Of a stretch of 64,000 bases of DNA, positions 2,357 through 30,679 are shown in pieces (the stretch's first letter is position 1; each line of letters opens with the position of its first letter). The DNA lies in the IMG/VR virus record IMGVR_UViG_3300028886_000087, positions 5,559-69,558 of that record. One strand, 5' to 3'. The position numbers were made by a program, and so were the translations under genes. The notes below the pieces were generated by a model that worked only from the letters and a program-made list of their open reading frames with translations, was not told the origin of the DNA and ran no database searches. Source of the stretch: a virus. Its lineage: Duplodnaviria > Caudoviricetes.

Positions 2357-2500
2357 TTACGTTTCCTCCTACATTTCAAGTATATCACAGGTTCGTGCAG
2401 AAGTCAAATTTCGTGAGCATGAGGGGTGAAATTTGAAATTTTTGCGTAAATCGGTTATAATTAAAATATAAAAAGGTTAAACTTAAATGGAGGAAGTTAA

Positions 2501-2713
2501 ATGGAAATAGTACAATGGATATTAACCCATGGAAGTGAAGTTGAATTAACTATTTCATGGTATGACATGAATATCGAATTTACAATGTATACTAGTTCAA
2601 ATAAACGCGTTTGTCGTAAAACCATTGACTACCATGAAATTGAAAATTATACCAATGAAATCATAACATTAATATTAGATTTAATGTATGATGAATTATT
2701 AAAGGAGAATTAA
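2501..2713 (+). CDS. Hypothetical protein
   Basis: GGAGG RBS; promoter TTGAAA-N17-TATAAT upstream. Confidence 0.75.
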   Translation: MEIVQWILTHGSEVELTISWYDMNIEFTMYTSSNKRVCRKTIDYHEIENYTNEIITLILDLMYDELLKEN

Positions 2714-2883
2714 TGGATAATTTAGATATAATAGGTATAATATTATTGTTAGTTGGATTAATAAGTTTAAGTGTTGGTGCAGCACTAACCTTTTTAAACC
2801 CTCTATTCTTCTATGTAGTGGTTTTTGGTTATGTTCTATGTATAATCGCGCCGGTGCTTATACTTTTTGATTTACTTAGATAG
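2713..2883 (+). CDS. Small membrane protein (56 aa)
   Basis: Hand translation MDNLDIIGIILLLVGLISLSVGAAL..., AAGGAG RBS. Confidence 0.65.
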   Translation: MDNLDIIGIILLLVGLISLSVGAALTFLNPLFFYVVVFGYVLCIIAPVLILFDLLR

Positions 2884-2889
2884 GAGGAT

Positions 2890-3126
2890 ATGGTAATGGA
2901 ATATGATAATGTAAACCACCCGGCGCACTATAACACAGGAAAGTATGAGTCAATCGACGTCATGGTTGAAACACAGGGTGCCGATGCAGTTAAAAACTTT
3001 TGCATCTGTAATGCATTTAAATACCTATACCGCCATCGTTTTAAAAATGGAATCGAAGATATAAAGAAAGCCATATGGTACTTAAACAAATATGTGGAAT
3101 TGGAGGAATCTACTAATGGCAAGTAA
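2890..3126 (+). CDS. DUF3310-like (SaV-like) phage protein
   Basis: DNVNHPAHY...FCICNAFKYLYR...KNGIEDIKKAIWYL signature. Confidence 0.85.
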   Translation: MVMEYDNVNHPAHYNTGKYESIDVMVETQGADAVKNFCICNAFKYLYRHRFKNGIEDIKKAIWYLNKYVELEESTNGK

Positions 3127-3283
3127 AGCAAAGTGGAAAAAGGGTATCAATTCATATCTCTGGCATTTTGGACTTAAATCAAAAGGCAGAGGTACTAAAC
3201 GAGTTGATTTCTATACATCTAGTGATAGACAAAAAATAAAACAACAAACGAAAAATCAACTTATGGAGGAAAATAATGACTAA
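3116..3283 (+). CDS. Small basic hypothetical protein
   Basis: MASKAKWKKG start with GGAGG RBS, overlapping previous stop. Confidence 0.65.
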   Translation: MASKAKWKKGINSYLWHFGLKSKGRGTKRVDFYTSSDRQKIKQQTKNQLMEENND

Positions 3284-3620
3284 ACGAGAAAGATTAGAAA
3301 TGGTTATTCGAGGGGAAATTAATGAAGAATTAATTGCCGATTGTAAAAGGGAGTTGGAAAAGTTAGACGTCCACCGCACCCATGCACGGGAGAACGCGAA
3401 TGGACAGGAAAACCGTGAAATGGAAGAGAAAATTATTGATGTTCTCTCGCGGGTTGAGGGACCGGTTCAAATTGATGAGTTGGGAGAGTTGATTGGCTGT
3501 ACGTTTGCGCGGCAGCGTCTGACGGCGATTTGTACGAACCTCATACGAGAGGGGCGTATATATAGCTGTGATGTGAAGACGAAGAAAGGGAAAAGGAAAG
3601 CATACTATATAGAGGGTTGA
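3276..3620 (+). CDS. Winged-helix DNA-binding protein, paralog 1 of 4
   Basis: MTKRE...ELEKLD...C-terminal KTKKGKRKAYYI wing; similar to 8770, 10761, 15793. Confidence 0.6.
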   Translation: MTKRERLEMVIRGEINEELIADCKRELEKLDVHRTHARENANGQENREMEEKIIDVLSRVEGPVQIDELGELIGCTFARQRLTAICTNLIREGRIYSCDVKTKKGKRKAYYIEG

Positions 3621-3965
3621 CGCCCTCTTTTTTTGATTTTTTATTTCATGGAGATTTTTTACTAGGCACCGGGCGCTTTAGCGCGCTAAAGTGCTAAAGT
3701 CCCAAATTCCTACCCCGCCAGTAGGAGTTAGAGAGGTCTAACTTTTTGCATTTAGTTTGGCTTAACTTTTTGGAACCTTCTTTTAGAAAAACTTAATTAC
3801 CTATTAAGGTGGTAGGTTTTAAAAGGTGGGGTACATTTTCCTAAAAATGATGTATAAATATACATTACTATGAATAAAAAATTTTTTATCTTTTTTAAAA
3901 AAAGGTATTGACTTCCGGTTTTATATGAGTATAATGGTATTAGATAAAGACAGGAGGTTAAGACA

Positions 3966-4430
3966 ATGAAAAACAATGAGATTAAAAGAACACTAATTCA
4001 GTTCTACAACAAACACGCTTTTACTCACAACTACATTCTGGGTTTCAGAATGAATGGCAACATCTACTATGTAATCGTTGACGCTAAGGAACTCGACTTC
4101 GTAACAAAGCTCGATAAGGCAAGTCGCGGGGCGGGCTACAGCCTTAGATTTAAGCCAAACAAGGCTCAGAAGAACTACCTTATGAGCCTCGGCGCTGAAG
4201 TGCTCTGCTCTGAAGAGTTCTTCGATGAACTCAAGACAATGAGCAAATACAACTTCGGTGAGCTGTTCGAGAAGCTCGTAACCGAGATGAATGGACAGAC
4301 CTGGGTTAAGGACAACGTACCATTCACAGAGGACGGAGACCTCACAGTTGACGGAGTTGCTTATCAGCTCAAGTTTGAAAAGGCAACATTCATCACTGAA
4401 GCACAGATGATGAGAATGGAGAGGGCTTAA
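3966..4430 (+). CDS. Hypothetical early protein
   Basis: Own promoter, GGAGG RBS, terminator hairpin AGAGGGC-TTAA-GCCCTCT. Confidence 0.85.
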   Translation: MKNNEIKRTLIQFYNKHAFTHNYILGFRMNGNIYYVIVDAKELDFVTKLDKASRGAGYSLRFKPNKAQKNYLMSLGAEVLCSEEFFDELKTMSKYNFGELFEKLVTEMNGQTWVKDNVPFTEDGDLTVDGVAYQLKFEKATFITEAQMMRMERA

Positions 4431-4543
4431 GCCCTCTCCGACTGGAGATAAAGAAGAACAAAGAAGTACAAGATAGGTATTGATAAGCTAAGCTGAAGAG
4501 AGTATAATATAGACAAGCTAAGAGATTGAAAGGAGATAGAACA

Positions 4544-4714
4544 ATGACAGTTAAGGAATTAATCGCAGAACTCGAAAAAATCGAAAATAAAAATATCGAA
4601 ATAACGATGTTAGCCGATGGCGGAGCCTATGATATTGAATCAATAAGTGTAAAAGAGTGGACTAACTCTCACAGTGAAAAAATATTGATATGTGAATTAA
4701 ATGGAGAGGAATAA
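4544..4714 (+). CDS. Small protein, MT(V/I)KELI family
   Basis: MTVKELIAELEKIENK; similar to 5198 and 14298. Confidence 0.75.
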   Translation: MTVKELIAELEKIENKNIEITMLADGGAYDIESISVKEWTNSHSEKILICELNGEE

Positions 4715-4839
4715 GCCAAAAGGCTTATTTTTTTTGACCGGGCCGCCGACAAAAAAACAAAGAAAAACAAAATAAATACTTGACTTTTAATTGTAAAACC
4801 TTTATACTATAGGTAGATAAAGAAAGGGAGGAAAGAAAA

Positions 4840-4992
4840 ATGACAAAGATGGAAATGGTAAACAGAATGATAATTCTCGGATGTATCAAAGAAGTAGACC
4901 GCAACAGATGGATGCACAAGACAAAAGCCGATGTGATGAGATGGTACATTGTAGCAGTGCCACGCAGACTCGAACATCTTGGGAGGGCATAG
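4840..4992 (+). CDS. Hypothetical protein (50 aa)
   Basis: Hand translation MTKMEMVNRMIILGCIKE..., promoter and GGGAGG RBS. Confidence 0.65.
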   Translation: MTKMEMVNRMIILGCIKEVDRNRWMHKTKADVMRWYIVAVPRRLEHLGRA

Positions 4993-4994
4993 AG

Positions 4995-5156
4995 ATGGCA
5001 AAGAAGAAGAACATATCAGTAGGAACAATAAAGGGGATTGATATAGTAAGACAGACTAAACCAATGCAGGATATACCTTTTAGAACAGGCGTTTATACAG
5101 ATAAAAGAAAGAAAAGAGAAAAAATTAATAAAAATAGACTTGACAAATGGTTGTAG
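4995..5156 (+). CDS. Small basic hypothetical protein
   Basis: MAKKKNISVGTIKG; GGAGG RBS. Confidence 0.65.
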   Translation: MAKKKNISVGTIKGIDIVRQTKPMQDIPFRTGVYTDKRKKREKINKNRLDKWL

Positions 5157-5197
5157 ATAGTCTATAATATAGATAGATAAAGGAAAGGAGAAAGAAA

Positions 5198-5383
5198 ATG
5201 AAAATTAAAGAACTTATTGCGGAACTTGAGCGAATAGAAAATAAAGAACTTGATGTAGTGGTGTTTAGTGAGGATTATGGTTATATAACAGATATAGATA
5301 TAGTGGAAACAAATAAGTATTATGGTAAGTCTGAATCATATGGTTGGGAAGCCAAAATAAGAGATTGCGTTGCACTCGTATAG
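5198..5383 (+). CDS. Small protein, MT(V/I)KELI family
   Basis: MKIKELIAELERIENK, near-identical N-terminus to 4544. Confidence 0.75.
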   Translation: MKIKELIAELERIENKELDVVVFSEDYGYITDIDIVETNKYYGKSESYGWEAKIRDCVALV

Positions 5384-5548
5384 TGCAACGTTTTTATTTA
5401 CTTATAAGTCGAACGTATGTTCGCGCCGAGTCGACCGGGCGCAACGACGAACATATGTTCTGTTTTATTAATAAATGTTAAGATAGTTGCATTTCCTCTT
5501 CATTTCTGTTATAATGTAATTACAAAAGATAAGAAAGGAGAAAATGAA

Positions 5549-5698
5549 ATGTTAATGATTATATTTGTGCTTTGGGCTATATTCGCTTTGGTTTGTGCCA
5601 TTCTTATTGAGGTTTACGAACATGAGTTCTTTGGTTTTTTGTTCTTGCTGTCACTTCCTCTTATGTTCTATGTGCCGTTTATAGTTGGATTGTTTTAA
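5549..5698 (+). CDS. Small two-helix membrane protein
   Basis: MLMIIFVLWAIFALV...; AAGGAG RBS. Confidence 0.65.
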   Translation: MLMIIFVLWAIFALVCAILIEVYEHEFFGFLFLLSLPLMFYVPFIVGLF

Positions 5699-5767
5699 AA
5701 TAAAAACTTGACTTTTTTATTAAAATATGATATAATAATTATAGAAAATAAGAAAGGAGAAAAAATT

Positions 5768-6127
5768 ATGGCAGTTTCTAGAAAAGTAGAAAGAGAAATA
5801 TTACGCAACGAATATCTTGAGGCAATTATCCTAAATTTCTTGGAAAAAGATGAACAAGTTTTACGAGTAAAATCTAATGAGATAGCAATTCCCGTTGTGG
5901 GGTGCGAGGGTAATGAAGATTTTATCGTCGTAACCGTAAAAGTTCCAACGGGAGCAAACAAAGGTACTGAACCATACGACGGTTACGAACTTGCGGAAGA
6001 TTATGAGATGAAAATCGCAGAAAAAGAACGCAAGAAAATCGAAACCGAAAAAAAGAAAGCGGAAAAAATCCGCAAAGATAAAGAGATTAGAGAAAAAAAG
6101 AAAGCAATTTCCGAAAAGGGTGAGTAA
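5768..6127 (+). CDS. Hypothetical protein with charged coiled-coil tail, paralog of 14674
   Basis: MAVSRK...VLRVKSNEIAIP...GCEGNEDFIV...KVPTGANKGTEPYDGY shared. Confidence 0.85.
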   Translation: MAVSRKVEREILRNEYLEAIILNFLEKDEQVLRVKSNEIAIPVVGCEGNEDFIVVTVKVPTGANKGTEPYDGYELAEDYEMKIAEKERKKIETEKKKAEKIRKDKEIREKKKAISEKGE

Positions 6128-6304
6128 TCACCCTTTATTTTTTTTGGAATTAAAACGAACATATGTTCATAGAATCGCGCCGGTCCGAAAATTCTCCGAA
6201 AAAGATTGTTAAAAAAATATTTATTTAAAAATTTTCCTAAAACTATTGACATATTCTTTCCTAATATTTATAATATAGATAGAAAAGGAAAGGAGATCGA
6301 AACA

Positions 6305-6595
6305 ATGACAAGCAGACATTACAACAGAGACCGCATCATCAGAGAAAAACTCATCAGAGAAATCGGTGTAGGCAAAGAAATCAAAACAGTAAGGGTTGAC
6401 AAAGGACACCCAAATGGTGCAGAACTCCACACAATCACAACAAACGGAATTATCATTATAAGAAACGAAAGAACAAACAAAATGATAACGAAGTTAATCG
6501 CAAGACCAAATCAGATTAAAAGATATGGCATTGAAGATAAGAAAGTTATCGAGATAGCAAGAAAACATCAGTCTCTCGGATACAATATGATTTAA
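6305..6595 (+). CDS. Hypothetical early protein
   Basis: MTSRHY...VDKGHPNGAELHTITTNG; promoter, RBS, terminator. Confidence 0.8.
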   Translation: MTSRHYNRDRIIREKLIREIGVGKEIKTVRVDKGHPNGAELHTITTNGIIIIRNERTNKMITKLIARPNQIKRYGIEDKKVIEIARKHQSLGYNMI

Positions 6596-6904
6596 ACGGA
6601 CGCAAGTCCGTTTTTTTATTGCCCATAGCGAAAACGATTTCGCTCGCGGCCGGTCCAACTATTCCGAAAATTAGTTTTTAGGGAATAGTTGGCGATTTTG
6701 AGCCTTTAAACCGTTGAAATTTCGTTACTTCAACTATTCCGAAAATTAGTTATATCGGAATAGTTGAAAAGTTGCGAAATCGTTTTCGCAACCGCGCCCG
6801 CGCGAAAAAAATTTAAAAAAGTTTAAAAAAGGTATTGACAGGGCAGTCGCAAAGTGGTATCATATAATTGTCAAAGGAAAGAGATAAAGAAAGGAAACAG
6901 AACA

Positions 6905-7378
6905 ATGACAAAGACAATCGCAACAATGCCAATTAACTACACATACAACGCAGAGAGAAAAGGTGCGCACTACCTCGTAGACGGTCGCACAAACTATGTA
7001 AACGGTGGCGAGTTCGCAGAAATCGTTTGCAAGGCAATCAGAGGTTTTGAAGCCATTAAAGACGCAAACACAAAATTTGATAAGGGTTCAGACATTGAGG
7101 AAACCAAAACATCAATTAAGTCGCACGGTTGCGGACTTACAGACGAGAAACTCGCAGACAACAGAGAGGACTTTCTCGCAGAATACTTCCGCAGAACTCA
7201 CTCAACAAATGTTGATTATGTAGACATTCAGAACGATGAAGTTATAATCTACAATATGGATATGAACGAGTTTAAAGAGTTTACAAACGAGTTCGCAAAG
7301 TGGGATAAACACTGCGCAAAGGTCAGAATTAAGACCACAAACAAAATGAGAGTATGGCTCGATGAAAGGGTCGCCTAA
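6905..7378 (+). CDS. Hypothetical early protein
   Basis: Promoter, RBS, terminator; GGEFAE...DI..TKTSIKS weakly nuclease-fold-like. Confidence 0.8.
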   Translation: MTKTIATMPINYTYNAERKGAHYLVDGRTNYVNGGEFAEIVCKAIRGFEAIKDANTKFDKGSDIEETKTSIKSHGCGLTDEKLADNREDFLAEYFRRTHSTNVDYVDIQNDEVIIYNMDMNEFKEFTNEFAKWDKHCAKVRIKTTNKMRVWLDERVA

Positions 7379-7579
7379 GGGCGATTTCTTTCGTTATAGG
7401 GCAAAATACGGCCTTCTAGACGTATACTCGCGCGCCGGTATGACCGGACCGGTCCGGCGCAGGAAACGCACGGGCGCGTGTATGGTGCGAAAAAATAAAA
7501 AAATTTTTTTAAAAAGGTATTGACAAAACACCGAAACCGTGTTATAATATAGATACAGTAAAGGAAAGGAGACAATTAA

Positions 7580-7798
7580 ATGCTTCGAGAATACACCATT
7601 CGCGGGTGTGTATGCTACCTCTCCGAAGAAACCATTCAGGCTTTCGAAGAGGAACAGAGAGCAATCGAAGACGAGCGCAGAGCGTGGGAAGATATGCATA
7701 GAATGTATCTTATCGCTTGCGAGAGTAATGACCCAATGGATTGGTCAATCTACTCTGACCTCTACAAGGATTGCTACGGATGCAGACCTCGCCACTGA
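7580..7798 (+). CDS. Hypothetical early protein
   Basis: Promoter and AAGGAG RBS; ends YSDLYKDCYGCRP. Confidence 0.75.
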   Translation: MLREYTIRGCVCYLSEETIQAFEEEQRAIEDERRAWEDMHRMYLIACESNDPMDWSIYSDLYKDCYGCRPRH

Positions 7799-8010
7799 AT
7801 AAGTTCGGAGTTCCTCGGTACTTGGCAACAGAAACCGATTTTTTTATTCCCTCTTCATCAAACATATGTTCGGTCGCGCCCGGGCCGCGATCCGGGTGTC
7901 GTTCCGGTCCAGGTTGACCCGGGCGCGACTTTGTGAAAAAATTAACACGATTGTATGTCAACAAATACAAAAAAGATGTTGACTTTCCTATATAGATTTG
8001 CTATACTTAT

Positions 8011-8345
8011 ATTGTCAAGAGGGAAATCGAGGTAGGAGGTTGGTTCTCAAAAAGATTTTGAGAAAAGTAGAAATTACCTCTTGACAATATCACAGAAATG
8101 TGATACAATATAATTGTCAAGGGGAGATGACGACCATCAAGAGAAATCTCTTCGGAGTGGAAATCCACACGCGTATGATGAGCCTAGAGGAATTTCATAC
8201 GGAGAGGACATCGAAAAAAAATGAAAAACTTTTCAAAACCCCTTGACACTATCACAGAAATGTGATACAATATAATTGTCAAGGGGATAAGGTAGAAACT
8301 TCAACGCGCGCGGAAGGTAATTCGATTGACAAGTTCCCCTTGACA
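8011..8345 (+). ncRNA. Three tandem promoter-driven small hairpin RNA candidates
   Basis: No ORF; closing stems 8011-8022/8078-8089, 8115-8124/8239-8248, 8277-8287/8335-8345. Confidence 0.5.
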
Positions 8346-8432
8346 GAAAAACATAAAAAAACAAAATAAAGTGTTGACAAAATAAAAAATCTATGATATA
8401 ATATAGATACAATAAAGAAAGGAGAAAAGTCA

Positions 8433-8567
8433 ATGAGCATTTACACATTCGCAAATCTCGATACATTCGAACTTTTCACAATCGAAGCGTCAACACTTGA
8501 AGAAGCAAACGAACTCGCTTCAAAGGTATGCGAAAACTTCAAAGTTTTCACAAGAAATTCTAAATAA
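8433..8567 (+). CDS. Hypothetical protein (44 aa)
   Basis: MSIYTFANLDTFELF...; promoter and AAGGAG RBS. Confidence 0.6.
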   Translation: MSIYTFANLDTFELFTIEASTLEEANELASKVCENFKVFTRNSK

Positions 8568-8769
8568 GGTATTGACAGATTGAAAAAAATCTGATACAAT
8601 ATAATCACAACAAAGAGTGCTGACGGTGAGTGAGTAGTCGGCAGTGGAACTTCCTAGGCTCGTCCACTAAAATAAAATTTAAAAAAGGTATTGACAAACA
8701 CTCAAAAGTTTGCTACAATATAATCACAAAGAAAAAACAAAACCCAAGTCAGTAGAAAGGAAAAACACA

Positions 8770-9120
8770 ATGACTAACAGAGAATTTTACACAGCAATCG
8801 TTAATGCTTATGATATTGAGCCAACTGAAACACAGTGGGAAGAACTCAAGGCTTTCGCCACAGACGCAATCGCAAAACTTGATGCACGCAACGCAAAGAG
8901 AGCGTCTACACCTTCCAAGACACAGAAGGAAAACGCACCGCTCATCGAGAAGATTGCTTCGCTTCTCACATCTGAGCCGAAACTCGCAAGCGAACTTGCT
9001 TCGGAAATGGAAATCTCCACACAGAAGGCAAGCGCACTTGTCAAGAAAGTTGAGGGTGTCAGCGTGTGCGATGTCAAGGTAAAGGGCAAAGGCACACAGA
9101 AGGGATACTTCTTCGCATAG
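8770..9120 (+). CDS. Winged-helix DNA-binding protein, paralog 2 of 4
   Basis: MTNREFY...AIAKLDARNAKRA...LASELASEMEISTQKASALVKK...KGKGTQKGYF. Confidence 0.75.
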   Translation: MTNREFYTAIVNAYDIEPTETQWEELKAFATDAIAKLDARNAKRASTPSKTQKENAPLIEKIASLLTSEPKLASELASEMEISTQKASALVKKVEGVSVCDVKVKGKGTQKGYFFA

Positions 9121-9296
9121 CCTAAAGGGGGTTAGCACTCGCTAACCCTTTTTTATTGCGAACATATCGAACATATGTTCGCGCGGGCCGGTCCATTGGT
9201 CCGGTCGATTGTTAAAAAAATAACTTTTAAAAAAGTGTTGACAAATTGAAATAATTTGATTATAATATAAGTGTAATAAGAAAGGAGAATAAAATA

Positions 9297-9479
9297 ATGA
9301 TATATGAGATTAACGTATGTAAAAGAGGTATACAAATTATAGATAAAGAAACATATTATAATATTATAAATAATATAACAAACTATGGAATGATAATTAC
9401 TAATAAAATTGAAACTTCTACAAAATGTCATATTGATATTGAATGGAATCCATATGAAAAATTTTATACTCCACAATAA
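9297..9479 (+). CDS. Hypothetical protein
   Basis: Promoter and AAGGAG RBS. Confidence 0.6.
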   Translation: MIYEINVCKRGIQIIDKETYYNIINNITNYGMIITNKIETSTKCHIDIEWNPYEKFYTPQ

Positions 9480-9692
9480 AATTTTAAAAATTACGTATAC
9501 TCGCGCGATGTCAAGGAAACTTTACATCGCGCGAACTTGTACATAGATTGTTAATAAATTAACAACAAAGTCGACCGGGCGCGATTGTGAATTTTTTCAC
9601 GACGGAAAAAACAAAGAAAAACATAAAAAGGGGTTGACTTCCTTAAACTTATCCTTTATAATAAAGGTACAAAAGGAAAGGAGATTAAGACA

Positions 9693-9830
9693 ATGACATA
9701 CGAAGAAATAATTGATAGACTTGAATTTGCAAAGTTAAGAATTAATAATTGCACTTATTCGCCTGAAACGATTGAAGCAATTGAAATAGCAATTTCTATC
9801 GTCAAAGAAAAACAAGAAAATACAAAATAA
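9693..9830 (+). CDS. Hypothetical protein (45 aa)
   Basis: MTYEEIIDRLEFAK...; promoter and RBS. Confidence 0.6.
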   Translation: MTYEEIIDRLEFAKLRINNCTYSPETIEAIEIAISIVKEKQENTK

Positions 9831-9897
9831 ACTATTGACAAACTCTCATAAATAGTCTATAATATAGATACAAAGAAAGAAAGAGAGGAAAACAGAA

Positions 9898-10332
9898 ATG
9901 ATAAAAATTATCAATCTCGATTGCGACGGAACATTCATCAATCTCTATGGCGTGAATGGTTGGCTCGATGACCTTATCAATGAAGATGTTAGACCATACA
10001 GAGAAGCAAAACCACTTGTAAATCTCGTATGGTTCGCAAGAACAATCCACGAATTGCAGAATAAAGGTTGGAAAGTAAATATCATTTCGTGGACTTCAAA
10101 AAATGGCACAAAAGAATACAATGCAAGAGTTAAACAGACTAAACTTGAATGGTTTGAAACTCATATCCCAAGCGTAAAGTTCGATAATGTTTATATCGTA
10201 GACTACGGAACACCAAAAACATCACTTGCAAAAGGTATTCTGTTTGATGATGAAGAACACAACAGAAACGAATGGAATGGAATAGCATTTGATGAAAAAG
10301 ATTTGATAAAGAAAATGAGAGCCTTTCTGTAA
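9898..10332 (+). CDS. HAD-superfamily phosphatase (5'-nucleotidase-like)
   Basis: Motif I LDCDGT, SWT, K..K, LFDD...N..W. Confidence 0.75.
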   Translation: MIKIINLDCDGTFINLYGVNGWLDDLINEDVRPYREAKPLVNLVWFARTIHELQNKGWKVNIISWTSKNGTKEYNARVKQTKLEWFETHIPSVKFDNVYIVDYGTPKTSLAKGILFDDEEHNRNEWNGIAFDEKDLIKKMRAFL

Positions 10333-10469
10333 AGGTTCTCATTTTTATGTATTTATATACACTGCGGCCGGTCGAACGTGTGTTCGACGTGGCCCGGGCG
10401 CGATTGTTAAAAAAATAACTAATGGAAAAAGTGTTGACAGATTTAGAAATTTTTGCTATACTATAATTG

Positions 10470-10694
10470 TCAAGGGGAGAGATGCCCACGGGAAGTGCCG
10501 AGGCAACCCTCCGAAAAAATCTAGGGTTCAGTATTAGGAAACAACTTTAAGAAACACTCCCCTTGATAAAAACATAAAAAAACATAAAAAAGATATTGAC
10601 ACAAACTAAAAAGTGTGCTACAATATAATTGTCAAGAGGAATAGAAAAGAACAAAATAAAAAAAATTAAAAAAGTTCTAAAAAAGTCTTGACAA
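10470..10694 (+). ncRNA. Two promoter-driven small hairpin RNA candidates
   Basis: Closing stems 10470-10479/10557-10566 and 10629-10637/10686-10694; no ORF. Confidence 0.45.
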
Positions 10695-10760
10695 ACCCAA
10701 ACAAATCAGTTATAATAAAGACACAAGTTAAAAAGTTAAAAAAAGAAAGGAAACAAAATT

Positions 10761-11090
10761 ATGACACAGAGAGATTTCTACAACGCAGTTATCAACGCTA
10801 ACATCAACGAGGAAATGACCTCATTCGCAAGCGAAGCAATCGCAAAACTTGATGCTCGCAACGCAAAGAGAGCAAACACCAAGTCAAAGACACAGATTGC
10901 TAACGAGCCAATCATCGAAGCAATTTCGAGAGTTCTCACAGATGAGCCAATGCTCGCATCGAAGATTGCGGAACTCTGCGAGATTTCAACGCAGAAAGCA
11001 TCGGCACTCGTTAAGAAAGTCGAGGGCGTTCAGTCAGTCGATGTAAAGGTTAAGGGAAAGGGAACGCAGAAAGGATACTTTCTCGCCTAA
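10761..11090 (+). CDS. Winged-helix DNA-binding protein, paralog 3 of 4
   Basis: Highly similar to 8770 (AIAKLDARNAKRA, ISTQKASALVKKVEGV, KGKGTQKGYF). Confidence 0.75.
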   Translation: MTQRDFYNAVINANINEEMTSFASEAIAKLDARNAKRANTKSKTQIANEPIIEAISRVLTDEPMLASKIAELCEISTQKASALVKKVEGVQSVDVKVKGKGTQKGYFLA

Positions 11091-11329
11091 CCTTAAAGCG
11101 TATAGTGGGCACGCATAAGTCCCACCCCACTTAAATGGTTTTCATTTCTTTCACCTCCTTTCAAGAAGAAACGCACGCAAAGTGCGTTTTTTCGTTCGTA
11201 GAAAACGAACATATGTTCGCGCCGGCCCGGGCACGACCGGGCGCGATTGTATGGATTTTAATACAAAGAAAAGTGTTGACTTTTCAAAATAATTGCTTTA
11301 TAATTAGAGTATCAAAGGAGGAAATAAAA

Positions 11330-11710
11330 ATGACTGATACTTTCGAATTAGAGAGAGACATCTATTGGTATCTTGTTGCTCGTAAAAAACTGATGCTTGC
11401 TTCAGATATTGCTTATGATAATGATATAACTACACAGAAAGCATCTGTTGTGTTAAAAAAATTAGTTCGTAATGGAGTTATTAAGGAAATACCTTACAAT
11501 TCTAAAAAATGGTATGGTACAGATGAAGCAGGTTTAAACTTTGGTTGTAGTTTATTTTATGACTATAAAAATAATCCAATTAAGGTTGAGACAATCGTAG
11601 AAAACGAAGATAATGTGGTTGAGTTTGAATTTGAAAACTCTAAAAAATCATACAAAGATAAATTTCTATCACTATTATATAATATAGTTTACGATTATTT
11701 TTACAATTGA
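11330..11710 (+). CDS. Winged-helix-containing hypothetical protein
   Basis: MLASDIAYDNDITTQKASVVLKKLVRNG resembles the HTH of 8770/10761. Confidence 0.6.
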   Translation: MTDTFELERDIYWYLVARKKLMLASDIAYDNDITTQKASVVLKKLVRNGVIKEIPYNSKKWYGTDEAGLNFGCSLFYDYKNNPIKVETIVENEDNVVEFEFENSKKSYKDKFLSLLYNIVYDYFYN

Positions 11711-11741
11711 AAAGATTATAAATTAAAAAGGAGAAAATAGA

Positions 11742-11876
11742 ATGGAAGATAAAACTATAAGATGTATACTCAAGTGTAAAATGTCAATTATTGACATTAT
11801 GGAAGAATATGACATCGAAAATGACACAGAAGTATTAATAGAACTTAAAAAATGGATTGAAAAGATTATAAATTAG
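11742..11876 (+). CDS. Hypothetical protein (44 aa)
   Basis: AAGGAG RBS; flanked by 20-bp direct repeat. Confidence 0.55.
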   Translation: MEDKTIRCILKCKMSIIDIMEEYDIENDTEVLIELKKWIEKIIN

Positions 11877-11889
11877 AAAGGGGAATAAA

Positions 11890-12087
11890 ATGGAAGTAAT
11901 AAATATCAGATGTCCCAAGTGTAAGGGCGAATTGATACTTGAAGATGAATATAACGATAGTGATATTTTTAACGATACTTATATAGATATAGGCACTTGC
12001 TATTGTAAACAGTGTGGGTCAGAATATATAATAAATACATATTACAAATTTTCGCACTTTGAACTTGGAGAAGAAATTAAAGAATAA
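11890..12087 (+). CDS. Zinc-ribbon protein
   Basis: CPKC...CKQC. Confidence 0.7.
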   Translation: MEVINIRCPKCKGELILEDEYNDSDIFNDTYIDIGTCYCKQCGSEYIINTYYKFSHFELGEEIKE

Positions 12088-12208
12088 AGCGAACACACGT
12101 TCGCTTTCGCCCGGGCGCCGATTGTTAAAAAAATTAACGACAAACTTTCTACTTGACAAATTTTTAAATTATTGTTATAATTAGGTATCAAAAGAAAGGA
12201 GATTAGAA

Positions 12209-12687
12209 ATGGACAAAACAATAGAAGTAGCAGAAAAAGTAAAAACTTTTTTGATAAATGAAGTAATGAGAAATAATTTTTCTGATGAAGATTATGGAAA
12301 AACTATTATTTATTTACGCAATTGGTTTGAAGCCGAAGCAACCTTTTTGAAGATTAAAGGAGATAGATAAATGAAAACTTATCGTATTACAATGACAACT
12401 GAATATATCATTGAAGCGAATACAGTAGATGAAGCATTGGATATGATTGATTATTCTTACGAAACAGATTCATATTATGATTCTATCGAAGAGTTGTCAG
12501 AAGAGGAGGATTGAAAATGTATCATAAAATTTATGAAAGTGCAATACGTCAAATAGATAATGGTACAATGACAAAAACAGAAGCAATTGAATGGATAAGA
12601 AGTGGTTATCATTCAGAACAGAATAAAAAGAAAGCAATTAGATTGATAGAAATACACTATCTTGGAAAGGAGAAATGCAATGGTTAA
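12209..12687 (+). CDS. Three tiny coupled ORFs (12209-12370, 12371-12514, 12517-12687)
   Basis: Hand translations of 53, 47 and 56 aa, each with AGGAG-type RBS. Confidence 0.6.
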
Positions 12688-12868
12688 ATGTCCAAAGTGT
12701 GGTGTTAAAGGTTGGGAAAATTATTATCCTATTGCTACATTAGATAGAGATTTTACTGATGATATGATGGTAGAAACTAATAAGGTAGAATGCACAGAAT
12801 GTCATCATCATTATATTATCAGAGAATTTTTTAAACTCTCATTCGTAAAATCTTATAATGTCAATTAG
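12680..12868 (+). CDS. Zinc-ribbon protein
   Basis: CPKC...CTEC, resembles 11890. Confidence 0.7.
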   Translation: MVKCPKCGVKGWENYYPIATLDRDFTDDMMVETNKVECTECHHHYIIREFFKLSFVKSYNVN

Positions 12869-13017
12869 CGAACATACGTTCGCTTTTGCCCGGGCCGCCT
12901 TGTGAAAAAATTCACAGGTAAAAAACATAAAAAAACATAAAAAAGGTATTGACTTCCCATAATAAATCGCTTATAATTACATTGTAAGATAAAAGAAAAA
13001 AGAAAGGAAGTAATACA

Positions 13018-13368
13018 ATGAAAGCAATCTATGATATTAAGAATGAAATGAGAATGGTAAAAAGAACTCTTGAAGTTATCGAAACAGAAGTAAACGGAAA
13101 AGATTTCACAGTAAAAGACTTACGCAATAAAAAGGGCGGTTATATGATTAGTGGTGCTTCAATGAAAGCACTTCAGCGTAGAGGACTTATTAAAAAAGTT
13201 GGAGAATGTCCAAGTTCTTTTAAAAAAGAAATTTATGTAGATAGATGCATTGGATATGTTGAGGTTGACATTCCTACTACAGTAAAAGTATATAGACAGA
13301 TACACAATTTTGAATGGTATCAGAATGTAATGCTTAAAACTCTTACTGATGCAGTAATGAATGTATAA
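13018..13368 (+). CDS. Hypothetical, possible winged-helix protein
   Basis: FTVKDL...SMKALQRRGLIKKV; promoter and RBS. Confidence 0.65.
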   Translation: MKAIYDIKNEMRMVKRTLEVIETEVNGKDFTVKDLRNKKGGYMISGASMKALQRRGLIKKVGECPSSFKKEIYVDRCIGYVEVDIPTTVKVYRQIHNFEWYQNVMLKTLTDAVMNV

Positions 13369-13509
13369 GGGTGCGAACGAGTGTTCGCACTCGTTCGCCC
13401 GGGCCGCCTTGTTAAAAAAATAACTTTTAAAAAATTTTAAAAAAGGTATTGACACACCTTTTTTATTTTGCTATAATGTAGATACAATAAAGAAAGGAAA
13501 TAAAACACA

Positions 13510-14151
13510 ATGGAAAAAATACTCATTATAGACACTGAAACGACCAATGATTTGACAGATAGTTTGGTTTATGATTGCGGTTTCATCGTAGCAGATTACA
13601 ATGGAACAATCTATTCTAAACATTCGTTCGTAAACGCAGACGTTTTCTGCGATAAGGAACTTATGGCTTCGGCATACTTCGCAGAGAAAATCCCAACATA
13701 TTGGAAAGAGATTAAAAGTGGTTTGAGAACTCTAACTTCTTTCAGAAACATAATGTGGACACTTCGCCACATAATGAAAGAGAACAACATCACAAAAGTT
13801 TATGCGTATAATTGCAGATTTGATTATTGCGCACTCGCAACAACACAGAGATATTTAACTAAATCGAAGTATCGTTTTTTCTTCCCTTATGCGACTTCGT
13901 TTTGTGATATACTCGCATATTCAAGAGAGGTTTTGAAAACAGATAAAAATTATCGTCAATTCTGCATTGATAATGGTTATCTCACCGCAAGAAATGCAAA
14001 TAGATATACCGCAGAAATAGTCGCTCGTTATTTCTTTGATAATGATTTTGTAGAAGAACACACAGCACTTTTAGATAGTGAAATCGAGTATAAAATCTTA
14101 ATGAAATGTATCGAGTTAGACGGACTTAACTATGATTGTAAAATGTGGTAA
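13510..14151 (+). CDS. DEDDh 3'-5' exonuclease (DnaQ/RNase T-like)
   Basis: ExoI IIDTETT, ExoII AYNCRFD, ExoIII HTALLD. Confidence 0.85.
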   Translation: MEKILIIDTETTNDLTDSLVYDCGFIVADYNGTIYSKHSFVNADVFCDKELMASAYFAEKIPTYWKEIKSGLRTLTSFRNIMWTLRHIMKENNITKVYAYNCRFDYCALATTQRYLTKSKYRFFFPYATSFCDILAYSREVLKTDKNYRQFCIDNGYLTARNANRYTAEIVARYFFDNDFVEEHTALLDSEIEYKILMKCIELDGLNYDCKMW

Positions 14152-14297
14152 CTACCACATTTTATTTTTATGCTCTTTGTTAAAATTTTCACACACCGCG
14201 GCCGGTCACTTGTTAATAAATTAACTTTTTAAAAAGGTGTTGACAAACAGAAATAAAAGAGTATAATTATATTAGATAAAGAAAGGAGATTAAAATA

Positions 14298-14453
14298 ATG
14301 ACAGTTAGAGAACTTATAAATATATTACTTAATTATGAAGTCGATGAAGAAATTGATTTCTTTCTGCTTAAAGAAGATTATACACCACGCATAATAATCA
14401 AAGAGGTTAGCCAAGAATCAGATTTACCATATATCGAATTTAAAGAGGTATAA
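14298..14453 (+). CDS. Small protein, MT(V/I)KELI family
   Basis: Hand translation MTVRELINILLNYEVDEEI... Confidence 0.65.
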   Translation: MTVRELINILLNYEVDEEIDFFLLKEDYTPRIIIKEVSQESDLPYIEFKEV

Positions 14454-14673
14454 TACCTCTTTTTATTTATCTGAAAACGAACAAACGTTCGTATTCGGCG
14501 GCCGGTCACTTGTTAATAAAATAACAACAATCTTTTTCTGCCCGGGCCGCCGCGCAAGTTAGTCAAGACAAACTTTCCCAAATCTTGCACTTTTTAAAAA
14601 ACTTGCAATCTCTGAAAATATCAGTATAATTATAATATAAGATAAAGATTTGAAGTGAAAGGTTAGGTGTCCT

Positions 14674-15036
14674 ATGGCAGTATCAAGAAAAGCAGAACGT
14701 GAACTCATCAGAGCAGATTTTCTCGACAGAGTGTCGAAGTTTCTCTTTGAAGGTGGCGAAGAGGTTCTTCGCGTCAAGTCCAATGAAATCGCAATTCCTT
14801 GCGTAGGTTGCGAAGGCAACGAGGACTTCATCGTTATCAACTTCAAGGTGCCAACTGGCGCGAATAAGGGAACAGAACCATACGATGGTTATGCTCTCGC
14901 AGAGGATTACGTTCACAATCTCGCAGAGAAGGAACGCAAAGCCGAAGAGCGCAAAGCCGAGAAGGCGCGCAAGATTGCACGCGATGCAGAACTCAGACGC
15001 AAGCGCGCAGAGATTGCGGAAAAGGGTGGTAAGTAA
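14674..15036 (+). CDS. Hypothetical protein, paralog of 5768
   Basis: Shared core motifs; higher GC codon usage than its paralog. Confidence 0.85.
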   Translation: MAVSRKAERELIRADFLDRVSKFLFEGGEEVLRVKSNEIAIPCVGCEGNEDFIVINFKVPTGANKGTEPYDGYALAEDYVHNLAEKERKAEERKAEKARKIARDAELRRKRAEIAEKGGK

Positions 15037-15301
15037 ACCACCCTTTTTTATTGGTCAACTATCGAACATATGTTCGGTGGCAGATAAATAGTTATCGTCG
15101 CGCGGATCCGGGCCGATCTGGTCCGGACATTGCCCGGGCTGATTGTCAAATTTTTAACAAAGTCAAATTTTGGGAGCGAGTTTGTTAATAATTTATTAAC
15201 AATTAGAGGTCTCTAACTTAGTTAGTCGTGTCTAACTCGAACATATGTTCCGAACAAATGTTCGTGTGCCGCGGCCACGCGCCGCCGATGTCGGCCGTGG
15301 A

Positions 15302-15502
15302 GGAGCTGCATTAGGGAGCTGTGAAGGAGCTGCAGCTGGCCCGCGCGACGGAGCTGCGCCTGTGCGACGAAAAGGAGCTGCGACTAAGAGCTGCGGGGTG
15401 CCGCCTAAAAATTTGACTTTTAAAATCAAATTTCTTTGGAGCTGTGTCGTCGTCAAAATTTGAAAAATTTTGTCAAATTTTCAGCGCGCATCCCACGAGC
15501 TG
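15302..15502 (+). repeat. (G)GAGCTG iteron-like direct repeats, 8 copies
   Basis: 15302, 15315, 15326, 15350, 15374, 15388, 15438, 15497. Confidence 0.8.
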
Positions 15503-15792
15503 TGACTTCGATGGCGGCTGCGTTCCCACAAATTGAAATTTGAAAAAGTTTCAAAATAGCTTTATAATATATATAGAAAGTGAGAGAGACAATAAAGTAA
15601 AATAAAAGGCTTTCCGCCGAACGTTCTTTCTCACTTTCCCGCAGGATTCAGAAATAAATAATTTGAAAAGTTCTGAAAATTTTGCTATAATATATATAGA
15701 AAGTGAGAGAGAAAAGTAACTTCTCCACCACTATAAAACAACATTCAACGTAACTGGTGCTCACTACCTAGTGTGAGAGAAAGTAGGACAAA

Positions 15793-16146
15793 ATGACAAA
15801 GGTTGAAGCTTACAAGGCAGTTATCGCAGGTGAAGTAACTGAGGAAGTAAAGGAAAAGTTCACAGAAATGCTCGCGGCTCACGAGGCTGAGGGTGAGAAG
15901 AGACGCAACAGAGCAGCTGAGAAGAGAGCTGAGAAGCTGGCTTCGGAGAAGGTGCTTGAGGATGGAGTGCTTGCAGTGCTCGGTGAGGACGCTATGACTG
16001 CTTCCGACATCAGAGACGCTGTCGAGGGCATCGAGACTTCGCAGAAGGCGACTGTAATCGCCAAGAGACTGGTTGCAGCTGGACGCGCTGTTCAGACAGA
16101 GGTCAAGGGCAAGTCTGGAAAGGTCAAGGGCTACATTCTCGTGTAG
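15793..16146 (+). CDS. Winged-helix DNA-binding protein, paralog 4 of 4
   Basis: MTASDIRDAVEGIETSQKATVIAKRLV...KGKSGKVKGYI. Confidence 0.7.
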   Translation: MTKVEAYKAVIAGEVTEEVKEKFTEMLAAHEAEGEKRRNRAAEKRAEKLASEKVLEDGVLAVLGEDAMTASDIRDAVEGIETSQKATVIAKRLVAAGRAVQTEVKGKSGKVKGYILV

Positions 16147-17200
16147 TATACGTAATACTTATACGTAAAAGCACAGGTTTTACACCTGTGCTTTCTCTTT
16201 TGTTCTGTTTTTTTGTGGAAATTTGACAAAAAATTACAAATTTTCGCATTATTTTTTTGTTTTTTGAACACAAAATTTGACTTTTGATGGTGTGTGGGGC
16301 TGCCATTTTTTATAGCTTTTACTACCTATCTCCTGACCCCTACACGACGTTCCCGTAGGCAAGTCACCCTCCCAACAAGTAGACAACCTCTTCGTATACG
16401 TAGCTGCACAATCGCCGCACACTTTTTTACGACTACGGCAACTACTTATACGTATACGTATACGACCTACTTACCTATATACTTATACGTTTATTATTGA
16501 GGTTACCCAACTACGTTTATCGTATCTGCTGCTCCATACGTTTACCGTTATATGTCCTCCTATACCTACCCTCTTACCTCCTATCCGTTTACGTTTATCG
16601 TATACTTGCCGCACTCTACCTCCGGGGTGAGACCCGAGGTACGTTGTTCCGCAGAAGCTGGACCCTTATATACGTATATATATACTTATACGAACTACGT
16701 ATACTAATTGTTGTGGGCCTCCGGGGTGAAACCGGAGGTACGTTGTTTTGTCGCGGCTGGCCGTTGTATATATGTATACTAGCCGTTGCGGTTGTCCGTA
16801 GTAGTTCCGCGGTACGTTCCTGAGCTGCGGGGACTGCGCCCCTTGTCAGGACCGACACGCGGAGCTCACTACATTGGCTTTTTTACGTATAAGTATATGT
16901 ATATATATACGTATACGTAATACGTATACATATATGTATAAGTTTTTCTATTTTGATTATAAGTAGATTTTAGTTTTAATTCCTACTATTTTTTTGAGAC
17001 ACGAATTTTTGGAAAATAAATAGCCTCGCAGATTCCTACAAAATAAATGCTCGTTGAAATTCCTACAAAATTAATTACGACTCTATGTTCCTGTTATACG
17101 TATACTCGCGGCCGTCCCATAGACTGACCGAATGGACGGTTTTCTAGAAAATTTATGACCCGCCGCGAGTATGCGTAGAACTTTCTACAAAATAATTCCC
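16147..17200. other. Non-coding low-complexity region at the transcription convergence point; origin or packaging-site candidate
   Basis: Many TATACG/TACGTA repeats, pyrimidine skew, duplicated CTCCGGGGTGA...GAGGTACGTTGTT at 16620 and 16720, TT(C/T)CTACAAAAT x3. Confidence 0.45.
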
Positions 17201-28563: not shown

Positions 28564-28901
28564 AATATCCTCCATATGAAAAATGGGCAAGCCTATCGAC
28601 CGCCCAAGAGATATATATAAAAGCCATCTCTATTAATGAGATGTCTGAATTATTTTATTATCATATATAAGTCATTTTTTTATTAAAAGTCTTTAATAAA
28701 TTCAGTAAAACAAAAGTCACTACAAAGTAGTGACAGTTGTTGTTAAAATTTATATTATCAAATAAGAGAACAATCGAAAGACTTCTCATCTTTCTATTTA
28801 TATTATACCCAAAATCCCAAAATTCGTCAAATTTTAAGGCGGTCGCATTGTTCTATGAACTCTCGCGGCCGCCCATGAAAGGAGGTGTACCATGAACTAT
28901 A

Positions 28902-28976
28902 TGGAGCTTCGAGCAGGAGTCGAACCCGCAATCTATTCATTACAAGTGAATTGCCTTACCATTCGGCTATCGAAGC
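28902..28976 (-). tRNA. tRNA-Thr(TGT)
   Basis: Cloverleaf, encoded CCA. Confidence 0.9.
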
Positions 28977-29061
28977 ATAAAGTGGAGTTATTCCGGACCT
29001 CCACTAACCCTATATTTTACAAGTGGGGTTATGACTTGATATAATAATTGCAATTATATAC

Positions 29062-29137
29062 TGGCGATTCGTCTTGGACTCGAACCAAGGACCTAGTGGT
29101 TAACAGCCACTTGCTCTACCAGCTGAGCTAACGAACC
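29062..29137 (-). tRNA. tRNA-Asn(GTT)
   Basis: Cloverleaf, CCA. Confidence 0.92.
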
Positions 29138-29230
29138 ATGGGTATGACGCGGGTTCCTGCCGCGTCGCAGGACATATATATGACAGATGTATGCGTCTGC
29201 CGCTGATTTGCCCTCAGCAGTAAAAGCATA

Positions 29231-29304
29231 TGGCTGGCTCACCTAGATTCGAACTAGGGATAACGGAGTCAAAGTCCGTTGAGTTACCGCTACTCCATGA
29301 GCCA
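29231..29304 (-). tRNA. tRNA-Gln(TTG)
   Basis: Cloverleaf, CCA. Confidence 0.92.
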
Positions 29305-29490
29305 ATATATTCTATAGCTTTCCACCCATTCTACGGTACTCTTTACATCTTTCCGAAATTATCGTGAGCGGCCTTCTCACATTGATATTGTTGTATCACA
29401 GCCACTGACTGCTGCTCGTGACCTGGGACTTCAGGCGGTGGTCTCATAGAAGTTGACTAGTACGTTCTATGTTGCATTGCTATAGATAAA

Positions 29491-29566
<76 letters not shown>

Positions 29567-29580
29567 TCAACAAAATTATA

Positions 29581-29672
29581 TGGACACGGAAGTTTGACTT
29601 GCACAAACTTCTCTAGGTATTTCACCTTACAACTCTTGCGGAGTGTGTTTTACTACATAAACTATTCCGTGT
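29581..29672 (-). ncRNA. Atypical tRNA-like RNA
   Basis: 7-bp acceptor, D arm, variable arm, T-like arm, CCA; no 7-nt anticodon loop. Confidence 0.55.
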
Positions 29673-29679
29673 TAACGCG

Positions 29680-30380
29680 TGAGAGTTTGAGCGTGCTACT
29701 CACAAGCAGCAGAGATTTGTTACCTAGGATTCGCTGAATCTGCCACAACGGACTTCCCACCGTAGAGCTTTACTTCACCCTACTTCGAAGTCTAAAAGGC
29801 CCAACCGTTGTTAGTGCAGACTTGGGTCTCTGCATTCGCCAACCGTTGTTTGTGCGGACTTGGCTCTCCGCAGAGGCATATTTTGATAACCCAGACTTCT
29901 ATGCAAACTGGAGGATTTATCGCAGGTGCCATCGGTGAAGTTCTCCCATTCACATGGGGTAGGCATTTATATCGCGGCTTACCATACTCTCCGCTTTCTA
30001 CGGTGCCGCCGCAGAACGACAGATTCATTTAACGCCAACAAACCTGCAAAGCACGCTTCTTTTATACAGTATGTTCTGTGCCACATTTCTTTCAACGCAT
30101 CGTGCCAGGTGCTACCTGGGTCGGGTTGAAATGCGGCCCCTGTGGCGGGTGCAGGGTTTTTAAATTAGCCGCTAGGTTTTCCATCCTAGCCGAGTTTCGT
30201 TTTTTAAAGTCGAGCCACTCTCCACGACTATATACTACTCTCATTTAATTTGGACTGAAGTGCCGGCGTTCCCGTGGTAGCTACGGACGTACTTCCTGGT
30301 TTTACTTACTATCCCGCCCTTGCCTTGGCGGTTCAGTTGACATAGATATTATAGTCGACTTGTCGCTGTATCATCCCGAC
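29680..30380 (-). ncRNA. ORF-poor structured RNA block
   Basis: Many hairpins; tandem 38-nt repeat with compensatory stem change. Confidence 0.4.
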
Positions 30381-30382
30381 TT

Positions 30383-30439
30383 TGGACAAAGTGGGAGTCG
30401 AACCCACACGCCTTACGATGCGTCCACGTTCATTTGTCC
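30383..30439 (-). ncRNA. Minimal tRNA-like RNA (no D arm)
   Basis: GGACAAA/TTTGTCC acceptor, GTGGG-TTCGACT-CCCAC T arm. Confidence 0.55.
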
Positions 30440-30454
30440 GCTTTTGACAGACCA

Positions 30455-30679
30455 CTACATGGCTAAAACTCTTGTGATGAAATCGCTTTCATCTTGAATA
30501 AGGTTATACGGGCTGTATTCGCCGTATGCTTCCATGTCTGAAACCGTGAGGATCTGCACTCCTCTGTCCAGCGTCTTTCTTCCCAGATAGGAAACGAGCG
30601 CAGAAAGAGTCTTGTCTCTCTCGGCTTCGATTGCCAAGCAGCCACGTTCGTCAAATTTCTTTGCTATTAAGTAGCACAT
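30455..30679 (-). CDS. DUF6718-like host-type protein
   Basis: MCYLIAK...GC.A...GVQILT.S...AYGEY.PY; family name from memory. Confidence 0.55.
   Translation of the reverse strand: MCYLIAKKFDERGCLAIEAERDKTLSALVSYLGRKTLDRGVQILTVSDMEAYGEYSPYNLIQDESDFITRVLAM

Follow-up and report, generated by a model that had tools for sequence, protein, structure and literature searches.

Predicted host-repressor docking sites of LexA and Rex type at the early-cassette boundaries of a large uncultured phage

The DNA analysed here, referred to throughout as the window, is a stretch of 64,000 nucleotides representing bases 5559-69558 of a 69.6 kb IMG/VR virus record (IMGVR_UViG_3300028886_000087) with a rated completeness of 57%, and the elements in question are LexA-type and Rex-type palindromes which are located in the gaps between its small early genes. 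The record derives from a large uncultured gut- or rumen-type phage of roughly 135 kb with an apparently virulent lifestyle; the contig encodes a sigma-factor-like protein, RtcB, a DNA ligase, tail proteins and an endolysin, and neither an integrase nor ParB was detected by search in a complete relative. Window positions 2400-16900 constitute a plus-strand block of small genes, most of which own a consensus sigma-A promoter (TTGACA-17-TATAAT), and going only by these promoters and by the sigma-factor gene of the phage itself this block is putatively the early region. Megablast of the region against GenBank phages yielded no match, and Pfam and PHROG searches with ten early proteins were mostly without a match. 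An earlier note on this DNA, made from the sequence alone, had described eight intergenic gaps which repeat the order terminator, LexA box, GC-rich palindrome, Rex box and promoter, and all eight gaps were indeed found to hold that order.

Pattern searches established that both box types are strongly enriched. The LexA-type pattern CGAACNNNNGTTCG (CGAAC-N4-GTTCG), allowing one mismatch, produced 15 matches (10 perfect and 5 with one mismatch) as compared to 0.81 expected from shuffles, all of them inside 5410-15264 and none in the other 54 kb of the window; the match at 5617 sits within a gene and is probably due to chance, leaving 14 boxes. The 5.5 kb of the record that precede the window contain neither a perfect LexA box nor a match to the loose pattern. 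For TTGTKAANNNNTTMAC, again with one mismatch allowed, 19 strand-hits were obtained against 2.9 expected, all within 7931-15160 once a weak A/T-rich match at 10727 had been set apart, while the full 18-bp Rex-type palindrome TTGTKAA-N4-TTMACAA was represented by 7 sites with up to one mismatch and 11 sites with up to two, as compared to 0.70 expected. The GC element GCCCGGGC occurs in 8 copies, every one inside a module. As a specificity control, 16 transcription-factor consensus patterns were scanned over 5300-15300, where LexA (15 against 0.27 expected) and Rex (11 against 0.70) were both far above the others; a smaller excess, which only reached the shuffle maximum, was seen for Fur and for CRP, with whose pattern TGTGA-N6-TCACA the Rex-type boxes overlap. 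In an unbiased count of all palindromes with 5- and 6-bp arms, CGAAC-N4-GTTCG ranked first, with 10 copies as compared to 0 elsewhere. The searches also added sites to those listed earlier, namely the LexA-type boxes at 5410/5448, 6156, 11206 and 15238/15251 and the Rex-only pairs at 9548/9585 and 14177/14210. The features are as follows; promoters and terminators are on the plus strand, and boxes and palindromes are given without strand.

LexA-type boxes:
5410 to 5423, perfect (CGAACGTATGTTCG), first of a double with a GC element between; starts 19 nt past the terminator stem 5367-5391
5448 to 5461, one mismatch, in the promoter-proximal slot; centre 32 bp before the -35 at 5487
6156 to 6169, one mismatch; starts 20 nt past the terminator stem 6115-6136
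7859 to 7872, one mismatch (CAAAC...), from the pattern search
9168 to 9181, perfect consensus CGAACATATGTTCG; a partial copy lies ahead of the box at 9159
10373 to 10386, perfect, from the pattern search
11206 to 11219, perfect consensus; starts 19 nt past the terminator stem 11175-11187
12090 to 12103, perfect, immediately 3' of a stop codon; extended into an 8-9 bp hairpin
12869 to 12882, perfect; extended into a longer hairpin
13374 to 13387, perfect; embedded in a hairpin with an 11-bp stem
14478 to 14491, perfect; starts 16 nt past the terminator stem 14442-14462
15063 to 15076, perfect consensus, 3' of the terminator of gene 14674-15036
15238 to 15264, two overlapping boxes offset by 13 bp (15238/15251), kept in relatives; layout as upstream of lexA in the candidate host family

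Rex-type boxes and a related palindrome:
7931 to 7948, one mismatch to TTGTKAANNNNTTMACAA; centre 39 bp before the -35 at 7979
9209 to 9226, weak, three mismatches; centre 20 bp before the -35 at 9238
9548 to 9565, perfect clostridial consensus TTGTTAATAAATTAACAA, from the pattern search
9585 to 9602, one mismatch; centre 40 bp before the -35 at 9634
10404 to 10421, two mismatches; centre 21 bp before the -35 at 10434
12122 to 12138, box with a 5-nt centre (TTGTTAA-N5-TTAAC)
12900 to 12917, one mismatch (TTGTGAA...TTCACAG); centre 40 bp before the -35 at 12949
13409 to 13426, weak right half, three mismatches; centre 31 bp before the -35 at 13449; kept in 8 orthologous spacers
14177 to 14194, one mismatch, from the pattern search
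14210 to 14227, two mismatches; centre 21 bp before the -35 at 14240
14510 to 14527, one mismatch, from the pattern search
15143 to 15160, one mismatch (TTGTCAA variant), followed by a 21-bp palindrome TTGTTAA...TTAACAA at 15182-15202
11247 to 11266, TTGTAT-N8-ATACAA palindrome in the slot that a Rex box occupies in other modules; second copy at 7951-7970

Palindromes of the GC element GCCCGGGC:
7878 to 7885, with a second CCCGGG at 7918
10392 to 10399, 5 nt past the LexA box
11225 to 11232
12109 to 12116
12888 to 12895
13397 to 13404, start of homology with relatives upstream of the exonuclease-like gene
14540 to 14547
15132 to 15139

Promoters and terminators:
5487 to 14630, plus strand, sigma-A-type early promoters served by the modules, with -35 starts at 5487, 6246, 7979, 9238, 9634, 10434, 11276, 12153, 12949, 13449, 14240 and 14603
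5367-5391, 6115-6136, 10311-10346, 11175-11187 and 14442-14462, plus strand, intrinsic terminator stems ahead of LexA boxes, from a terminator scan
about 9125-9150 and 15040-15056, plus strand, further terminators identified by eye

The arrangement of these elements was analysed on non-redundant contexts (below 75% similarity) taken from the window and 24 related loci. LexA boxes start at a median of 16 nt (interquartile range 15-20) past a terminator stem (n=53 non-redundant boxes) and their centres lie 30-137 bp upstream of the next -35 (62 non-redundant cases), with none overlapping a core promoter; helical phasing of the LexA box to either the promoter or the Rex box was not found. Rex boxes are placed in relation to the promoter, their centres being 20-23, 29-33, 39-42 or 49-52 bp before the -35 (42 non-redundant promoters), which corresponds to a 10 bp period with a Rayleigh R of 0.73 and a p value of about 2e-10, and the spacings between Rex boxes are multiples of about 11 bp. 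Core promoters are free of either box type, with the exception of a Rex-type outlier centred 9 bp before a -35. An alignment of 8 orthologous spacers upstream of the exonuclease-like gene established that homology begins at the GC element, the upstream genes being unrelated, and that 6 of the 8 spacers still end in a LexA box. On account of this start of homology and of the box geometry, the module is a junction of two units, a 3' unit consisting of terminator and LexA box and a 5' unit consisting of GC element, Rex box, A-tracts and promoter; the elements of the five-part module proposed earlier are thus all present, but they do not make up one fixed unit. Two further parts of that description needed qualification: the Rex boxes are present, but several are imperfect in the right half (those at 9209 and 13409 have three mismatches to the 18-mer), and a sigma-A promoter follows most modules, but none was found downstream of the last ones at 15063 and 15238/15251.

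The earlier note had proposed to look for the module in relatives, where it proved to be both present and conserved. It recurs in over 20 related IMG/VR contigs, the composite pattern being found in 13 IMG/VR stretches and a looser LexA-gap-Rex pattern in 36; these relatives share 65-90% DNA identity and are mosaic, with whole cassettes present or missing. Two relatives are complete, and in both the boxes are clustered in a single early block (6-11 kb): 9 of 9 perfect boxes in G001 (136.6 kb) fall within 31.8-37.9 kb, and 9 of 10 in G006 (135.3 kb) within 116.9-127.8 kb. A distant relative from a Lachnospiraceae metagenome-assembled genome (MAG) bin keeps a compact module before the exonuclease-like gene, at a protein identity of only 43%. 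Among 142 unique LexA boxes from the window and relatives the half-sites are invariant, and the centre, which was left free in the search, reads R-T-A-Y, with A or G at position 6 in 140 boxes, A or G at position 8 in 126 and T or C at position 9 in 130; fixed half-sites around a free centre are the pattern expected of a binding site for a protein dimer. The LexA consensus of Bacillus subtilis, CGAACRNRYGTTYC, has a centre like the R-T-A-Y of the phage boxes. In the relative L029 (IMGVR_UViG_3300033463_001124), 31 Rex-type boxes were counted in 12.5 kb (for example at 10640-10840); they follow one another in tandem, 2-6 at a time and spaced at a 33-35 bp period, with CCGG in the spacers, and no CCCGGG occurs at that locus. 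A 9-mer, CCTCTTCAT, present at window positions 7850 and 5495, recurs directly ahead of LexA boxes and within promoter spacers, in many relatives also, among them six of the numbered related loci.

When 185,579 bacterial genomes were scanned for the composite pattern, 5 matches were returned, four of which are chance occurrences in GC-rich genomes, the fifth being a phage-like contig binned in a Lachnospiraceae MAG; the host is probably a member of the Clostridia, of Lachnospiraceae type. Of 41 genomes from the family of this MAG, 38 proved to encode LexA and 34 Rex. Upstream of lexA, 85 CGAAC-N4-GTTYG boxes were identified in 26 of 30 genomes, with one to six in each, and their symmetrised consensus, CGAACATATGTTCG, is identical to the commonest phage box, the preference at the centre also being shared. 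In 11 of the host lexA promoters box pairs are offset by 12-14 bp, which is the layout of the double box at 15238/15251. Perfect 10-of-10 matches number 0 among the 85 host lexA boxes as compared to 10 in the window, and in one 2.2 Mb MAG the single perfect LexA box is situated on its phage-like contig. Since the consensus of the host boxes is identical and none of them is perfect, the phage boxes may be described as idealised host LexA operators. The clostridial Rex consensus TTGTTAANNNNTTAACAA (Ravcheev et al. 2012, as cited in PMC5367854 and PMC9600882) is matched by the Rex-type phage box, which shares the choice of G or T at position 5. Host Rex operators have the same 18-bp palindrome, but are found at fermentation and redox promoters, whereas the boxes described here precede early promoters of the phage and, in relatives, also form tandem arrays with a period of 33-35 bp. 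The likeness of the two outer motifs to Firmicutes LexA and Rex operators, as asserted from the first inspection, was therefore borne out by the enrichment, by the clostridial Rex consensus and by the boxes upstream of lexA, including the 13-bp double. Domain searches for LexA_DNA_bind, S24 peptidase and the Rex N-terminal domain were negative in this contig and in G001. Any canonical Firmicutes LexA would be expected to bind boxes of such quality, and binding by host LexA is accordingly rated as likely, while for host Rex the chances of binding to the Rex-type boxes are put slightly above even.

The reading that we favour, albeit tentatively and with less than even confidence, is that the boxes represent predicted docking sites for host repressors which act in cis at the boundaries of early cassettes. 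The early region would then be a string of small transcription cassettes, the junctions of which carry such docking sites. A cassette would end in an intrinsic terminator followed about 16 nt on by a super-consensus LexA operator, and many cassettes would start with a GC-rich palindrome and a Rex-type operator whose distance to the downstream -35 (20, 30, 40 or 50 bp) keeps it on a single face of the helix. Beginning some 7-9 nt past the U-tract, a bound LexA dimer would abut the leading edge of RNA polymerase that pauses at the terminator, and could serve as a roadblock or insulator between cassettes from which the SOS response releases LexA. Rex bound upstream of the promoter might adjust RNA polymerase recruitment (alpha-CTD, UP-element region) to the NADH/NAD+ ratio, and in the replicating genome the same sites could also soak up both repressors. 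The fixed positions of the boxes with respect to terminator and promoter point to a role in cis, and docking in cis and a decoy function are compatible with each other.

Several observations weigh against this reading. Neither box type overlaps the core promoter, which makes classical repression unlikely, and we know of no citable precedent for LexA acting as a roadblock. A terminator was detected for 53 of 136 non-redundant LexA boxes, using a crude scan, and the relatives share ancestry and are not independent samples even after the 75% similarity filter. Many Rex-type boxes in the window are imperfect in one half, and a nearby Rex-type site (up to two mismatches, at -82 to -131) was found for just 5 of 30 host rex genes, these sites being few and weak. 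The perfect Rex-type sites of the MAG are uninformative, lying next to integrases or within a histidine kinase gene and not next to known Rex targets. In relatives, Rex-type boxes also form tandem arrays of 4-6 at a distance from promoters, an arrangement more in keeping with a sponge or a nucleoprotein array. The link to the host consists of a single phage-like contig binned in one MAG and is weak.

The closest rival, which we consider rather unlikely, is that the DNA acts as a sponge, whereby replicated super-consensus sites for LexA, Rex and others, numbering hundreds to thousands, strip the repressors off the host chromosome and turn on SOS, repair and recombination genes as well as NADH-reoxidising fermentation genes without any phage effector protein, the placement between terminator and promoter merely keeping the decoys out of the path of RNA polymerase. 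It agrees with the core promoters not being overlapped by boxes, and with the window operators surpassing those of the host, both for LexA (10 perfect boxes as compared to none of 85 at lexA and one in the 2.2 Mb MAG) and for the density of Rex-type sites with up to one mismatch (7 in 10 kb of the window as compared to 13 in 2.2 Mb). The tandem arrays of up to 6 Rex-type boxes outside a promoter context in relatives also fit, as do the operators nearby that resemble those of other repressors (HisR-type at 3674, LacI/cre-like at 6626 and 6772). A sponge, however, needs no fixed geometry, yet the LexA box is held at 16 nt from the stem and the Rex box on one helical face with respect to the -35; the large non-coding tRNA region is without sites, and a single incoming genome would supply only about 15 LexA sites.

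Docking of host repressors in cis must further be weighed against binding by proteins of the phage itself, an alternative to which we assign a low probability. The sites would then be operators for four winged-helix paralogues of the phage (at 3276, 8770, 10761 and 15793) and/or for a TrmB/ArsR-like protein encoded at 11330, which would switch early transcription off or organise it; the resemblance to LexA and Rex operators would then have arisen by convergence or as mimicry that competes with the host proteins. Where operators are repeated in a phage genome, the protein that binds them is usually one of the phage's own, examples being the mycobacteriophage stoperators and the P1 C1 operators, and several winged-helix proteins are encoded in the early region, one of which (8770) belongs to a family of more than 2,500 metagenomic members and gave a confident winged-helix model (pLDDT 89); the regular 33-35 bp arrays of L029 also resemble a cooperative nucleoprotein complex. 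On the other hand, two unrelated boxes match host global repressors over 10 and 14 specified positions and the host layout of the 13-bp double is reproduced in addition, so that chance convergence is very unlikely. The box sequence has moreover remained constant though the phage proteins diverged to 43% identity, and the cassette of the TrmB-like gene is largely missing from most relatives. For an array of the stoperator type, with sites spread over the genome, the winged-helix proteins would be candidate binders, but the sites are restricted to the early block, and neither an integrase nor ParB was detected in a complete relative.

T4 PeSL elements and lambdoid boundary sequences are repeated intergenic elements flanking small early cassettes in a mosaic region, a setting which is encountered here too, and the earlier note had suggested that the repeats could be recombination points of this kind, the 30-50 bp LexA-GC-Rex junction being a homology patch for the gain, loss and shuffling of cassettes; this is very improbable as, despite mosaic relatives in which entire cassettes are present or absent and the start of homology among 8 phages exactly at the GC element, with differing genes upstream of it, break points were generally intergenic without an excess at the LexA and GC elements (27 of 167 intergenic BLAST match ends, 16%, as compared to 14% expected), conservation is that of operator palindromes of dimer type with free centres and not uniform identity, and the constraints on position with respect to terminator and promoter are left unexplained.

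Two further candidates were rejected. An RNA hairpin does not serve as a general explanation of the LexA box, as most boxes follow a separate terminator and are probably untranscribed DNA, with half-sites devoid of co-variation; exceptions are the boxes at 12090, 12869 and 13374, which extend into longer hairpins. Promoters for a phage sigma factor were likewise dismissed, as perfect dyads with a free centre point to dimeric binding proteins.

To our knowledge, the use of host regulators by lytic phages is limited to a handful of cases, each involving one regulator at promoters. A literature search found no virulent phage for which an array of LexA or Rex operators had been described, in agreement with the novelty claimed for the array, though the concept itself has precedents in phi29 and Nf (PMC2731898) and in phages with CtrA sites (PMC9437464). 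In the virulent Bacillus phages phi29 and Nf, Spo0A binding was footprinted and its sites overlap and repress promoters (PMC2731898); the likeness consists in a lytic Firmicutes phage carrying several sites for a global host regulator at early promoters or origins, thereby tying its development to the state of the host, whereas the present array comprises predicted sites for at least two different host repressors, 10-15 of each, with the LexA sites anchored to terminators. The CtrA sites of Alphaproteobacteria phages, associated with 'lytic deferment' (PMC9437464), are conserved host transcription-factor sites in phage promoter regions which were also found by comparative genomics, but they concern another regulator and host phylum and occur once per promoter region, without a terminator-linked or arrayed layout. 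LexA operators are further known from the temperate elements GIL01, CTXphi and coliphage 186 (Fornelos et al. 2016, as cited in PMC9437464), which share SOS boxes on phage DNA and use host LexA directly; there, one or two boxes overlap the switch promoter, whereas here 14 boxes lie 30-137 bp upstream and no integrase or ParB was detected. What is new in the present analysis is the comparison with operators of the host family, the anchoring of LexA boxes to terminators and the promoter phasing of Rex boxes.

A widespread family of large phages thus builds its early-gene boundaries from operator-like sites of at least two unrelated host repressors, and the positions of the boxes point beyond classical repression to a decoy, to an upstream element in phase with the promoter or to a roadblock linked to the terminator. 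Provided that binding proves true, the sites would represent a new route by which phages of gut and rumen Clostridia read or rewire the SOS and redox state of the host, a system in which protein-assisted termination could be tested and a source of ready-made high-affinity operator parts, and would permit host prediction from sequence, as operator type and layout point to the host lineage. Should the boxes act as a sponge, phage DNA alone would turn on repair, recombination and redox metabolism without an effector encoded by the phage.

The four winged-helix paralogues are encoded at window positions 3276-3617, 8770-9117, 10761-11087 and 15793-16143 and are plausible DNA binders: an AlphaFold model of the 8770 paralogue shows a PadR/ArsR/MarR-like winged helix behind long N-terminal helices, and Foldseek returned generic winged-helix matches only, all with E above 0.03. 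The HisR-type site, CGCTTTAGCGCGCTAAAGTG at 3674-3693, is ahead of the first early promoter, has one mismatch to the Firmicutes HisR consensus cacTTTA-N6-TAAAgtg (PMC9413887) and has similar counterparts in two relatives. A nested symmetric block at 6626-6800 consists of a 36-bp palindrome (CAACTATTCC...GGAATAGTTG) in two copies with a LacI/cre-like dyad on either side (GCGAAAACGATTTCGC and TTGCGAAATCGTTTTCGCAA), and its elements recur in five relatives. At 8000-8330 and 10460-10640, short transcripts free of open reading frames (ORFs) are predicted from consensus promoters, and the same units are found in relatives; they have no Rfam match, and their 5' end TTGTCAAGGGG can pair with the 3' sequence CCCCTTGACA, which is itself the -35 of the next promoter. 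Directly 3' of the double LexA box, positions 15290-15520 contain GAGCTGC/GGAGCTG repeats (at least 7 copies) together with A/T-rich palindromes; this array adjoins the coming switch in gene orientation, is kept in six relatives and is a candidate replication origin or iteron field.

Elsewhere in the window, 30 tRNA genes are located on the minus strand at 28900-37530 and a full-length ROOL RNA (291 bits, Rfam) at 41774-42369, the Rfam search having detected only tRNAs and the ROOL RNA and nothing within the modules. GCGGCCGC is present in 8 copies, all outside the early region, an excess of a GC palindrome which is without explanation. Over the whole window certain 6-bp palindromes are avoided (ATCGAT 0 as compared to 12 expected, GATATC 2 as compared to 18 and GAATTC 4 as compared to 15), a depletion which suggests restriction avoidance.

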